The notes beneath the pieces were generated by a model, which was given only the letters and a program-made list of their open reading frames with translations, was not told the origin of the DNA and ran no database searches. Made by a program: the position numbers and the translations under genes. Below are positions 1,061 to 7,151 of a DNA stretch of 64,000 bases, piece by piece (the stretch's first letter is position 1; every line of letters begins with the position of its first letter). Location: the NCBI RefSeq assembly GCF_056712565.1, contig NZ_CM160072.1; one strand, written 5' to 3'.

Positions 1061-2653
1061 GTGTTAGTTTCCAGTAACGTCACCATGCAGTTCGGCAGTA
1101 AGCCGTTGTTTGAAAACATTTCCGTCAAATTTGGCGGCGGCAACCGTTACGGCCTGATTGGCGCGAACGGTAGTGGTAAATCCACCTTTATGAAGATCCT
1201 CGGCGGCGACTTAGAGCCGACGTTGGGTAACGTTTCCCTCGATCCCAACGAGCGCATTGGTAAGCTGCGTCAGGATCAGTTTGCCTTTGAAGAGTTCACT
1301 GTGCTGGATACGGTGATCATGGGGCATAAAGAGTTGTGGGAAGTGAAGCAGGAGCGTGACCGCATCTATGCTTTGCCGGAAATGAGTGAAGAAGACGGCT
1401 ATAAAGTGGCCGATCTGGAAGTGAAATACGGCGAAATGGACGGTTACTCTGCGGAAGCTCGCGCTGGTGAACTGTTGCTTGGCGTGGGAATTCCAGTGGA
1501 ACAGCACTACGGCCCGATGAGTGAAGTTGCTCCTGGCTGGAAGCTGCGTGTGCTGCTGGCGCAGGCGCTGTTTGCTGATCCGGACATTCTCCTGCTCGAC
1601 GAACCGACCAACAACCTCGACATCGACACCATTCGCTGGCTGGAACAGGTGCTGAACGAGCGTGACAGCACCATGATCATCATCTCGCACGACCGTCACT
1701 TCCTTAACATGGTTTGTACCCACATGGCGGATCTGGATTACGGCGAGCTGCGCGTTTATCCGGGCAACTACGATGAGTACATGACGGCGGCGACTCAGGC
1801 GCGTGAACGTCTGCTGGCTGATAACGCCAAGAAGAAAGCGCAGATTGCTGAGTTGCAATCTTTCGTTAGCCGCTTTAGCGCCAACGCCTCGAAATCTCGC
1901 CAGGCAACTTCGCGCGCGCGCCAGATTGATAAAATCAAACTGGAAGAGGTGAAAGCCTCCAGCCGTCAGAACCCGTTCATCCGTTTTGAACAGGATAAGA
2001 AACTGTTCCGTAACGCGCTGGAAGTGGAAGGTCTGACTAAAGGGTTTGATAACGGTCCACTGTTTAAAAATCTCAACCTGCTGCTGGAAGTGGGTGAAAA
2101 ACTGGCTGTACTGGGTACCAACGGCGTCGGTAAATCAACGCTGCTGAAAACGCTGGTGGGCGATCTGCAACCGGACAGCGGCACCGTAAAATGGTCTGAG
2201 AACGCGCGCATTGGTTACTACGCCCAGGACCATGAATATGAGTTCGAAAATGATCTGACCGTGTTCGAATGGATGAGCCAGTGGAAGCAGGAAGGCGATG
2301 ACGAGCAGGCGGTACGCAGCATTCTCGGTCGTTTACTGTTCAGCCAGGACGACATCAAAAAGCCAGCGAAAGTGCTTTCCGGTGGGGAGAAAGGGCGGAT
2401 GCTGTTTGGTAAGTTAATGATGCAGAAGCCGAACATTCTGATCATGGACGAACCGACCAACCACCTGGATATGGAATCTATTGAGTCGCTGAACATGGCG
2501 CTGGAACTGTATCAGGGCACGCTGATCTTTGTTTCACACGACCGTGAGTTCGTAAGCTCCCTGGCGACCCGTATTCTGGAAATCACCCCGGAACGCGTGA
2601 TCGACTTTAGCGGTAATTACGAAGATTACCTGCGTAGTAAAGGGATCGAGTAA
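1061..2653 (+). CDS. ybiT: ABC-F family ATPase (two ABC cassettes)
   Basis: 530 aa; two Walker A motifs ([18 protein letters not shown]) and two ABC signature regions; GTG start. Confidence 0.93.
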
Positions 2654-2661
2654 GTTATTAT

Positions 2662-2690
2662 CAGTAGCCCTGATATGGTCAGGGCTACTG
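2662..2690 (+). terminator. perfect 12-bp stem-loop downstream of ybiT (terminator or RNA stability element)
   Basis: CAGTAGCCCTGA-tatgg-TCAGGGCTACTG; no strong T-run follows, so intrinsic terminator function is uncertain. Confidence 0.4.
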
Positions 2691-2704
2691 AAACTGATGA
2701 CAAA

Positions 2705-2815
2705 CGCAAGATTGCCTGGTGCGCTACGCTTATCAGACCTGGCAGTGTATCGCAATATATTGAATTTTCATGATTTTGTATGCCAAATAAGGCGGTCACG
2801 CCGTATCCGGCATAA
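2705..2815. repeat. REP/BIME-like extragenic palindromic units
   Basis: GCCTGGTGCGCTACGCTTATCAGACCTGGC and AAGGCGGTCACGCCGTATCCGGCAT resemble E. coli REP consensus units, in the ybiT–ybiV intergenic region. Confidence 0.45.
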
Positions 2816-2852
2816 TGACATGCACTTTCTCAATAAACTGAATTGGCGATAA

Positions 2853-3668
2853 TCAAAGATTAAACGGCGGTTTATTTTCCAGCACCGCCTGAATCACATT
2901 CAGCGCGCCTTCATGATTATTATCATCGGTAGCGTAACGGGCGATTTGTTTAATGTTTTCCGCAGCATTGCTCATCGCAAAGGAATAACGCGCCATTTTC
3001 AGCATCTCCGCATCGTTACCGCTGTCGCCAATCGCTACCACATTTTGCGGTGACAGATCCCAGCGTTTCAGTAACCGCGAAATACCGTTTGCTTTATGTA
3101 GACCGGGAATAATCAAGTCGATAAAGCCAAAACCACTGGTGACGGGTTTCATAATGCCATCCAGCGCTATGTGCAGTTTGTCGATCACTAACGGGATTTG
3201 TTCATCCGGCAGGTTGAGCGAAAACTTGAACAGTACGTCGTCAATCTCCTGATAATCTTTTACAGGTTTCAGGCGATGGTAGTGTTTTGCCATCAGTGCG
3301 ACGAATGCTTCGGGGGCATTTTCGCTGACATATGCACTTTGCAGACCGCAGGCGACAAAATTGAGTTGCTTATCTTTTAGCAACTCGCCAATAACAATCC
3401 GCGATTCATGTCGGGTCAGTTCGCCGTGGAACAACTGCTTGCCATGTTCGTAAACCAGTGCGCCGTTTTCCGCGACAAAAGAGATCTCATCCTTTAGCTC
3501 AGGAAAGAACGAAATAAGCTGGTAATACTGATTACCGCTGGCGACAACGAACTCAATGCCGCGCTTTTTCAGTTCCTGATATTGCGCCATAAAACGTGGT
3601 TGGTTGTACGTTTTGGCGTCGTTAAGAAAAGTACCGTCCATGTCTGTGACGATAACTTTTACGCTCAT
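2853..3668 (-). CDS. ybiV: HAD-family Cof-type sugar phosphatase
   Basis: 271 aa; N-terminal DMDGTF HAD motif I; GDSGND motif; K-12 gene order. Confidence 0.9.
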
Positions 3669-3813
3669 AGGTGTGCTCCTGGCTCGAAAATGAAACCGTA
3701 ACAGTGTAATAACAATGTGACGCAGAGCACAAATTATATTTCGAATGAAAGCGAGGCTGAAATTGATGATGTGAATGATTTGGCCCGGCGACGACGACGC
3801 CGGGCTGAGGGGA

Positions 3814-6246
3814 TTACAGCATGTGTTCGGTACGGGCGATGATATCGTCCTGTGCGTCTGGAGAGAGCGCGGTGAAGAAGGCGGAATAACCCGCTACGCG
3901 TACCACCAGATCGCGGTATTGATCCGGATGTTTCTTCGCCTCCAGCAATGTTTCGCGGGAAACAATGTTGTACTGAATATGCCAGCCTTTATGCACTTCA
4001 AAGAAGGTACGCAGCAGGATCATCAGTTTCTGCTTGTCAGATTCATTCTCCAGCGTTGCCGGATTCAGTTTCTGGTTGAGCAGCACGCCGCCGAGAATTG
4101 CTGCCGTAGGCAGTTTACCCACCGAGCCAATGACCGCAGTAGGGCCGAGATGGTCAGTACCGGAGGCCGGACTAGCGCCTTCTGCCAGCGGGGTATGTGC
4201 TTTACGTCCGTCCGGCGTTGCCATAGTCTGCGCGCCAAACGGTACGTTAGCGGAGATAGACGATGTGCCCGCATAATAGTTGCCGCCAATCGGACCACGA
4301 CCGTAGCGCGGGTTATGGTACTGCTTCAGTTCGTCGATATAGGTCTGATAAGCGCGAGCCAGCAGCGTATCGACAGTATCATCGTCGTTGCCGTACTTCG
4401 GCGCACCGTTAATCAGCCGCTGACGCAGCTGCTCGTGAGTCAGGCCGTCGAAGTCATCCGCCAGTGCGGCAGCCAGCTGTTGCTGACCAATCGCGCCCTG
4501 TTCAAATACCAGTTTCTTCACTGCCGCCAGGCTGTTGCCGAGGTTAGCAATGCCGACCTGCAGGCCAGAAACCCAGTCATATTTCGCGCCGCCTTGCTTG
4601 ATACTTTTCGCTCGCTCAATACAGTCATCGACCAGCGCCGAGCAGAGAATATCGTGTACGTTCTCTTCCAGCATGGTATCGACGACATATTCGATTTCGA
4701 TTGATTTACGCGTGTAGTAACGGATTTGCGTATCCCATGCGTCCATTACTTCATCGAAGTTGTTGAAGTTACCCGCTGACAACGCTTTTTCTTGTGGCAG
4801 GAACACTTTGCCGCTGGTGGCATCACGACCGCCTTCCAGCGCCGCCAGCATCACGCGGGCGAAGTTGATAAAGCTCATGCCGGTACAGCGATAGCCCCAT
4901 TTGCCACCGACGGCGGTTTCGATACAACCAATCGCTGCATAGTCGTAAGCGTCCTGCGGTTCAATACCGAGTTTAATAAATTCCGGGATGACGATTTCGT
5001 CGTTGTTGAACGCCGGCATCCCGAAACCACAGCGGATCACCTGAACACAGGCATCGAGGAAATCGTTGCTCATTCCCGCGTGGTAGCGCACGCTGAGGTT
5101 AGGCTGAGTGGAACGCAGGCGACCGCAAGATTCGAGGATCGCATAAGAGAGTGGATTTACCGCGTCCATCGGTTGACCATCAACCAGATTTTGCCCGCCA
5201 ATGGTGACGTTCTGATACAGTGGACTTCCCGCAGAGGCTTTTGAGTGTGAGCCGGAGCGGATTTTGTTCACTTCCAGCAATTTCAACCAGCAGCTATGCA
5301 GCATCTCGATGGCGTGTTCGCGATCCAGTGTCTGGTTCAGTTCAACGTCGCGGCGATAGTATGGGTAGAGATACTGGTCCATACGACCAAACGATACCGA
5401 GTGACCGTTAGATTCGATCTGCAAAATCAACTGGATGAAGTAACACAGTTGCAGCGCCTGCCAGAAAGTCTGCGGCGGCTGGTGGGCGATAAGATCGCAG
5501 TTTTCTGCTATCGTCAGCAGTTCATCGCGACGGCTTTCGCGGGTTTCGGTCGCGGCCATTTCACGCGCCAGGGCAGCGAAACGTTCAATGTGTTCACTGA
5601 CTGCCACCATCACGATATCAATCGCTTTCAGGAATTGCTCGCCATGTAAATCTTCCAGTACCGTCAGATTGATGCGCGAGCGACGTTCCGCCACTTTCTC
5701 ACGCAGACCATCAAGCCCTTTTTCCAGCAGTAGCGGGAAATTCACCGCCAGGTGCGCATCGCCGGAGGTCATATTGCCCTCCGCTTTAATGATGCCGGTC
5801 GCCAGCAGACCTTTTTGCTCATCGGTAAACATGCCGTAGCAGCGATCCTGTACGGTCTGACCGCGCCACCACGGGCACACTTCATGCAGAACACGTTTGT
5901 TCTCCTCGCTCACCGCAAAACCAGCACCCGGACGATCTGCCAGATCATCAATCTCTTTTTCGATCCAGGAGACGGTATATTCCGGGAAGATCGGCGCGGC
6001 GCGAACTTCGCTTGCCTGGTTGCCAATGATCAACTCATCGTGCTTGATCCAGATGGTGCGATTCGCCAGGTGATGCGCCAGTGCCAGCGCGCGACGTACC
6101 GGGATTGGCTTATCGAGATGTTGTTGATACATCTCGGTATAGTGTTGTGCTCGTTCGGTACAGACCGGCGGTTTCACAATATGCACCAGCGCATTTTTGT
6201 GCGCTTTAATGCGGTCGCTGAGCGTATCCAGTTTTAGTGTTGTCAT
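3814..6246 (-). CDS. ybiW: glycyl-radical enzyme, pyruvate formate-lyase-like
   Basis: 810 aa; C-terminal glycyl radical motif region (RVAGYSAFF); PFL-like length and context. Confidence 0.93.
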
Positions 6247-6251
6247 GATTG

Positions 6252-7151
6252 TTATCCTCGTAAGGTCGCGGTTAACCCTTTCTGGCAGGCATACTGCTGG
6301 GCAAAGTCGAGCAGTTCTGGCGCATCAAGCGGTTTTTCCGGGGCGTCATAGGGCAGATTAAGTAAGTGATATTTGTTGATGCCCAGTGTGTGGTAGGGCA
6401 GAAAATGAATTTCGCTAACGTGCAGCTCGTCGGCGGCAAAATCGGTAATGGCTTTCACAGAAGTTTCGTCGGCATTAAAGCCCTGAATCAGTGGCACGCG
6501 GATAATGATTTTTTTGCCGGCTGCGGCGAGTTTTTTCAGGTTATCCAGCACCCTGGCGGCGTTACCGTCGGTCCACTGTTTAAACGGCGCGTCGGCAACG
6601 TGTTTTAAATCGGCAAGAAACAGATCGATATAGGACAGAGAAGGGGCGATATATTTCCACGGCACATGCAGACAGGTTTCTACCGCAGTATGAATACCGG
6701 CTTCGTGGCTGGCTTGCAGTAGCCCCATCGCCATTTCCGGCTGCATAAACGGTTCTCCGCCAGAAAGTGTTAAGCCGCCGCCGCTGCGATCGTAAAACGG
6801 TTTATCGCGCAAAACGGTTGCCATGATCTCCTCAACGCTTTTCACTTCACCACACACGGTTAACGCCTGTGTTGGGCAGCAGTCGGTTAGCGCCGTAAAA
6901 TGCTCCGGGGTTAACTTTTCCCGATGAATAAGCAAACCATTCAACGCGCGCTCAATCACTTCCGGTGCGGTCTTAGCGCACAGCTCACAGCCTTCCAGAC
7001 AGAGTCGTGGGTCATACAGCAGATCCTGCGTGCGGGCGCGGCTTTCCGGGTTCTGACACCAGCGGCAACCCAGCGAACAGCCTTTAAGAAATACGACCGT
7101 GCGGATACCGGGGCCATCATGGGTCGAGTAGCGTTGAATATTGAAAATCAT
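6252..7151 (-). CDS. ybiY: glycyl-radical enzyme activating protein (radical SAM)
   Basis: 299 aa; CxxxCxxC radical SAM cluster ([13 protein letters not shown]) plus additional Cys clusters; immediately downstream of ybiW. Confidence 0.9.

Follow-up and report, generated by a model that had tools for sequence, protein, structure and literature searches.

A compact ybiT–ybiV spacer lacking ybiU in Escherichia: the probable scar of an old, inherited deletion

Why is ybiU missing between ybiT and ybiV in some Escherichia chromosomes, and how old is its absence? The question is raised by a 64,000-nt stretch of E. coli DNA (contig NZ_CM160072.1 of RefSeq assembly GCF_056712565.1; hereafter the window), in which ybiT (1061–2653, plus strand) and ybiV (2853–3668, minus strand) converge on a spacer of exactly 199 bp (2654–2852). 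We call this arrangement the ybiU-null haplotype. ybiT encodes an ABC-F family ATPase of 530 aa (NCBIfam PRK15064, 1067 bits), the protein being 100% identical to K-12 YbiT in a tblastn comparison, and ybiV encodes an intact Cof-type HAD-IIB sugar phosphatase of 271 aa, recognized by its match to the Cof-type HAD-IIB family. Both genes carry these names in an identical RefSeq record, and from 2300 to 3200 the window matches the E. coli ATCC 11775 / DSM 30083 chromosome at 100% identity. On the side of ybiV that faces away from ybiT lie ybiW (3814–6246) and then ybiY (6252–7151), both on the minus strand. We treated as spurious an ORF of 73 aa (2534–2755, minus strand) that lies across the 3' end of ybiT and the spacer, and for which Pfam gave no match.

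The original prediction described the locus as lacking ybiU, with a spacer of about 200 bp, and this description holds. It also gave the K-12 order as ybiT–ybiU–ybiV with a ybiU product of about 421 aa, and this too is correct: in a K-12 derivative (locus L001), ybiT is followed by 240 bp, by ybiU (421 aa, DUF1479, minus strand), by 151 bp and then by ybiV. K-12 does not have the compact spacer, whose presence there the original prediction had named as what would speak against it, and the difference is indeed an indel relative to K-12, with ybiU present there and absent here. To delimit it we relied on local alignments, because global alignment with cheap gap extension spread the junction over ybiU. 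On the left, homology runs from the ybiT stop codon through a hairpin, two REP units and a 27-bp tail (2815–2841, homologous to the K-12 sequence between the BIME and the ybiU 3' end), and stops at window position 2841. This corresponds to L001 4042 and leaves 52 nt to the ybiU stop codon; alignment to L004, the locus of E. coli WP2-W18-ESBL-08, ends at the same position. On the right, homology begins at 2860 in the comparison with K-12 and at 2845 in that with L004. The junction therefore falls at 2842–2852 (ATTGGCGATAA), of which only ATT (2842–2844) is unassignable relative to the L004 haplotype.

The additional segment in K-12 spans L001 4043–5518 (1476 bp), and the stretch missing from the window is about 1.46–1.48 kb long. 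This stretch comprises the terminator of ybiV together with the promoter, coding sequence and 52 bp of 3' flank of ybiU; in the K-12 segment the two regulatory sites are seen as a terminator-like hairpin immediately downstream of ybiV and a promoter-like site that would serve ybiU. Inspection of the breakpoints by eye gave no convincing microhomology. Nor does the junction carry an IS end, an inverted repeat or a target duplication, and all but 3–11 nt of the spacer matches K-12 or L004.

The hairpin and REP-like units of the spacer were originally thought to lie in the place of ybiU. This does not stand: they are positional homologues of elements in the K-12 ybiT–ybiU intergenic region, so they did not replace the gene, and it appears from the alignment that hairpin and REP pair were there before the deletion. 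The presence of REP-like palindromes as such was well founded. Unit 1 (2714–2739, plus strand) is a degenerate Y-type REP with two mismatches to the K-12 REP core and is the positional homologue of the first K-12 REP. Unit 2 (2779–2814, minus strand) is a degenerate, inverted Z-type REP, an imperfect palindrome with 16-nt arms that are 81% complementary, and is homologous to the second K-12 REP; it matches the Z-type pattern at 2782–2811 with three mismatches. Shuffled sequences gave no match to the patterns for either unit. Both fit the REP type, that of imperfect palindromes of roughly 30–40 bp with a conserved core, and they lie in opposite orientation in extragenic DNA at the 3' ends of the convergent ybiT and ybiV, as a BIME-like pair. 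The K-12 homologue of unit 1 is a multi-copy element: searches with the K-12 sequence matched at least 21 places in the median genome, counts being capped at 40.

We describe the window units as degenerate because stricter canonical REP consensus patterns found no match within three mismatches in the spacer; the units were recognized through their K-12 homologues and a looser pattern. A scan of 2500–3000 against Rfam 15 with a permissive E-value gave nothing at or above the gathering score. Sub-threshold matches to naRNA4 (CssrE; 19.3 versus 59.5 bits, plus strand) and ES036 (CssrF; 18.9 versus 37.6 bits, minus strand) cover 2735–2819, over the REP units, and most likely reflect REP similarity only, since naRNA4 is REP-derived.

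The hairpin (2661–2691, plus strand) starts 8 nt past the ybiT stop codon. The original prediction of a perfect hairpin with a 12-bp stem was right as to the perfect pairing and one pair short as to the stem, which has 13 bp: arms of 13 nt (2661–2673 and 2679–2691) are 100% complementary around a 5-nt loop. We estimate the chance expectation of a perfect 13-bp inverted repeat in 199 bp at about 1e-5. The spacer as a whole folds better than all of 200 shuffled sequences on both strands (z scores of -4.1 and -4.9), and the hairpin is present in the centroid fold of each. Null-type and K-12-type hairpins differ at four of the 13 stem pairs, every one a compensatory double change. In the hairpin alignment 92% of cells are paired, as against 30–45% in slid controls, and the covariation score exceeds that of all 500 shuffles. 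The 2661–2691 element thus behaves as a structured RNA whose base pairs are kept by compensatory changes, although this covariation amounts to one evolutionary contrast, since the alignment holds only six sequences in two haplotype classes. In other genera, unrelated hairpins occupy the same place after ybiT. Taken together, the compensatory stem changes and the recurrence of hairpins at this position support selection for structure at the 3' end of the ybiT mRNA.

The hairpin has the stem of an intrinsic terminator but not the U-tract, which is missing after it on either strand. A promoter/terminator scan of 2500–3000 found no terminator-like site on either strand and no promoter-like site in the spacer; the same scan called the K-12 ybiV terminator, which served as a positive control. 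Because there is no U-tract and no intrinsic terminator was called, a stabilizer or factor-dependent terminator seems more likely than a canonical intrinsic terminator, and the hairpin probably forms or stabilizes the 3' end of the ybiT mRNA.

Whether the compact form is a loss or an ancestral state can be judged from the wider family. A scan of species-representative genomes with YbiV yielded 46 loci, which were then searched by tblastn. The order ybiW–ybiV–ybiU, often followed by ybiT, occurs in Citrobacter, Klebsiella, Raoultella, Lelliottia, Trabulsiella, Pluralibacter, Enterobacter and others, and nearly all of these genera share the ybiV ending ...LDNT[SA]PFNx* and, after it, a conserved hairpin of the form CCGGAGC...GCTCCGG-T(n). 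As ybiV–ybiU synteny is general in the Enterobacteriaceae, the presence of ybiU is ancestral for the family and the compact form represents a loss. Salmonella enterica subsp. diarizonae (L025) has a rearranged locus unlike those of the other genera sampled: there ybiU is found upstream, on the strand opposite to ybiV, and ybiW downstream in inverted orientation.

The null allele is widespread. Of 5426 complete E. coli genomes, 1041 match an 80-bp probe across the junction at 93.8–100% identity, with a single, always chromosomal, hit in each, and 4309 contain the ybiU segment; expressed as proportions, about 79% of complete genomes have ybiU and about 19% the null junction. In 1052 genomes the match extends over the whole 901-bp query (2300–3200). 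Carriers identified by strain name include 536, LF82, JJ1886 (ST131), APEC IMT5155, A0 34/86 and ATCC 11775, all of which we take to belong to phylogroup B2. The same junction, with two or three substitutions, was read directly in E. coli WL297, which in this region has about 95% identity to the window and likewise to K-12, and which appears to represent a different, divergent lineage. The type strain of E. albertii, NBRC 107761 (L007), has the same compact spacer, hairpin stem and REP pair, with two or three substitutions in the junction; it is the one genome by which this species was sampled, in a comparison made without E. fergusonii. Over 7,986 bp, window and E. albertii align without a break in collinearity; identity is 92% overall and 91% in the spacer.

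The description of the indel as strain-level therefore has to be given up. The junction is identical in all carriers, as judged by the probe in the 1041 genomes and by direct reading in E. albertii and WL297, which argues for one event. As the divergence of the spacer equals the species background, the allele would be about as old as the split between E. coli and E. albertii, and this argues for inheritance rather than for recent transfer or a strain-level indel.

Sequence divergence around the junction tells of the history of the allele in E. coli. The spacer and the last eight or so codons of ybiV are much more diverged from K-12 than their flanks: the window is 84% identical to K-12 in the spacer and 97–100% in the flanks, returning to 98–100% rightwards of about 2880. 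The null allele is thus a deeply divergent patch of about 230 bp within ordinary E. coli flanks. The patch includes the ybiV 3' end (2853–2880, minus strand), where the window protein terminates in ...LENKPPFNL* and not in the ...LDNT[SA]PFNx* seen across the family. The ending in E. albertii and E. whittamii is ENKPPFTL*; that of K-12 and other genera is DNTSPFNS* or close to it. Nor is ybiV in the window followed by the CCGGAGC...GCTCCGG-T(n) terminator that is found after it in nearly all other genera sampled. In its sequence the patch looks like an old indel polymorphism with recombination homogenizing the chromosome up to its edges. A simple deletion would not leave so much divergence, for which one must suppose either that the allele is very old and recombination has acted on its flanks, or that one haplotype was imported. 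Identity falls a second time at 3669–3813 and about 3801–4000, in the ybiV–ybiW intergenic region and the ybiW 3' end, where K-12 is 90% and WL297 84% identical to the window and the flanks are 95–100% identical.

We consider it probable that the 199-bp spacer is the scar of one old deletion of about 1.46–1.48 kb, carried since then as an inherited allele across species. This single event would have removed the whole ybiU cassette and left ybiT and ybiV intact and convergent; what remains would be the ybiT-proximal half of the former ybiT–ybiU intergenic region, now joined to ybiV a few bases beyond its stop codon. Other explanations of the compact spacer have to be weighed against this one. 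We reject the possibility that an artefact of assembly or sequence, through collapse of the region, gave a falsely compact spacer, as it is contradicted by the identical arrangement in 1041–1052 independent complete genomes, which RefSeq annotates alike. The original prediction favored a strain-level indel at a REP site, which would mean that REP elements recombined to delete the gene recently or repeatedly, and the locus does have features that invite such a reading: there are REPs in the spacer, their number differs between O157 (one) and K-12 (two), and a REP in L004 has been the target of IS621. We nevertheless regard this mechanism as highly improbable. The same junction recurs in 1041 genomes and in another species, the spacer has diverged by 9% between the window and E. 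albertii, and neither breakpoint coincides with a REP. The left one (2841/2842) lies 27 bp past the second REP; the right one lies a few bases beyond the ybiV stop codon, where ybiU-bearing haplotypes have a terminator hairpin and not a REP, and no REP was found between ybiU and ybiV in those that we read (K-12, O157, L004 and L006).

A more serious alternative is that loss was followed by regain. According to this scenario, the compact form is ancestral in Escherichia, ybiU having been lost once in the stem of the genus and re-imported later from other enterics by homologous recombination, from a Citrobacter-like donor for the K-12 type and also in a second, divergent type, so that K-12 and not the window would be derived. 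Several observations can be read in this way. The null allele occurs in E. albertii, the ENKPPF..L end of ybiV occurs in E. whittamii, and the K-12 ybiV end is that of the family consensus, followed by a terminator that resembles the one in Citrobacter. The two E. coli ybiU alleles are only 74.7% identical, and 46% at third codon positions, within flanks that are 98% identical. In a neighbor-joining (NJ) tree, K-12 YbiU (L001 4095–5360), compared with the proteins of L009–L024, falls inside Citrobacter, nearest to Citrobacter sp. MGH106: a group of the K-12 type with all Citrobacter was recovered in 177 of 200 bootstraps, Citrobacter without the K-12 type in 0 of 200 and a monophyletic Escherichia YbiU likewise in 0 of 200, whereas YbiV gives a clean Escherichia clade. 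The tree suggests horizontal transfer of the K-12-type ybiU, but it is a simple NJ tree with moderate support, and the hint stays unconfirmed because nucleotide identity between K-12 and Citrobacter has no clear step at the ybiV/ybiU border. K-12 ybiU, at 79–86% nucleotide identity, is in fact no closer to Citrobacter than are ybiW (84–85%) and ybiT (85–87%). Moreover, the cryptic-clade Escherichia (L006, L008 and L045) carry ybiU, and the succession of hairpin, BIME and tail is common to null and ybiU-bearing haplotypes, which polymorphism retained from a ybiU-bearing ancestor explains equally easily. We therefore judge loss followed by regain to be unlikely. Either way, under a deletion retained as a polymorphism or under loss and regain, the compact form descends from a deletion and the allele in the window is old.

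The second type of ybiU is best seen in L004 (5874–7133, 419 aa), where it has 74.7% nucleotide identity to K-12 ybiU and 85% protein identity, and where the flanking ybiT and ybiV are 98% identical. It is also present in L006 and L008 and in about 211 genomes, and its protein forms a deep clade of its own with those of cryptic-clade Escherichia (200 of 200 bootstraps, NJ). It is an allelic replacement.

Other genomes have yet other contents in or beside the interval. In E. coli WP2-W18-ESBL-08 (L004 4442–5720), a 1279-bp IS621 of the IS110 family sits inside the first REP of the ybiT–ybiU spacer, between ...TTATCAGGCCT and ACGCAGTACC..., and the REP site is accordingly a target of the REP-seeking IS621 in some genomes; at this locus the element was seen only in genomes other than the window. 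In the O157-type strain FORC_044 (L005 4355–4521), the ybiT–ybiU spacer has a single REP and 167 bp, compared with an inverted pair and 240 bp in K-12. Both this variant in REP number and the IS621 insertion are events separate from the ybiU deletion. E. whittamii has an AT-rich insert of 1.08 kb (L039 6817–7891) where ybiU would be, with two small ORFs on the same strand, one of 93 aa that has no Pfam match and one of 99 aa that matches DUF6960 (E-value 8e-9). In E. coli HCM-24C-3 (L003 4358–8350), a sugar-utilization island with a GH31 glycosidase and an MFS transporter follows right after ybiT, where the sequence resembles Citrobacter loci; in other E. coli strains with the island, a LacI-type regulator adjoins ybiU.

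At least five fillings of the interval between ybiT and ybiV are thus seen: empty, K-12-type ybiU, the 75%-identical ybiU, the two-ORF DUF6960 cassette and the GH31/MFS island. This variety raises the possibility that the interval is an ancient multi-allelic replacement site that has been kept polymorphic across Escherichia species, an idea that we put forward tentatively and hold to be rather doubtful. If it were true, long-term balancing or niche-dependent selection on YbiU, or repeated exchange between genera, would have to be invoked in place of neutral loss.

Some functional consequences would follow for strains with the null allele. Since the canonical terminator is gone, ybiV transcripts may end or be stabilized at the REP pair and hairpin, a prediction that rests on sequence and folding. 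REPs stabilize upstream mRNA against 3' exonucleases, and the pair here begins 39 nt downstream of ybiV and folds well on the minus strand. For ybiT, the hairpin 8 nt past the stop codon may act as a stabilizer or terminator at the mRNA 3' end.

Strains with the null allele would also make no YbiU, a protein of the Gig2-like/DUF1479 type (PF07350) whose structure has been solved (2dbi, 2dbn and 2csg). A literature search on ybiU and DUF1479 returned no functional study and no mention of a lineage-specific absence. The null allele shows that a major extraintestinal-pathogenic E. coli group, like E. albertii, can do without YbiU, which may help in assigning a function to the protein. The main value of the present analysis is to set the record straight: the compact spacer is real and inherited, neither an error nor a private mutation, and its 80-bp junction cleanly marks the lineage in which it occurs. 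Some slight evidence that the hairpin after ybiT has a function comes from its compensatory changes, and the current understanding of REP elements and genome evolution is left unchanged by the findings at this locus.

Comparison with known systems places the null haplotype among familiar arrangements, with some differences. The closest is the BIME of the K-12 ybiT–ybiU intergenic region, which likewise follows right after the ybiT stop codon with hairpin, REP, linker, inverted REP and tail, and which aligns with the window over about 190 bp. The two differ in that identity is about 84%, four stem pairs have changed with compensation, the REPs of the window are more degenerate, and its tail runs into the ybiV stop codon where that of K-12 runs into the ybiU 3' end. 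The E. albertii NBRC 107761 spacer shares with the window the compact architecture, the hairpin stem, the junction, the ENKPPF..L end of ybiV and 8 kb of collinear sequence, and differs by about 9% substitutions, which is the species background, and in REPs that are closer to canonical. With intrinsic terminators the hairpin has in common a GC-containing perfect stem-loop right after the stop codon and a conserved structure; such terminators, however, have a U-tract, which the window hairpin lacks on either strand.

Among presence/absence polymorphisms of the accessory genome, the ybiU null allele is typical in that it concerns a single dispensable gene of unknown function and is split along lineages. 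It departs from the usual accessory-gene polymorphism in being common to two species, and in that two functional alleles, deeply divergent, and still other fillings of the interval occur beside it. The absence of ybiU is, in sum, ordinary lineage-structured variation in gene content that is visible in existing annotation, and neither a strain-specific feature nor a new element.
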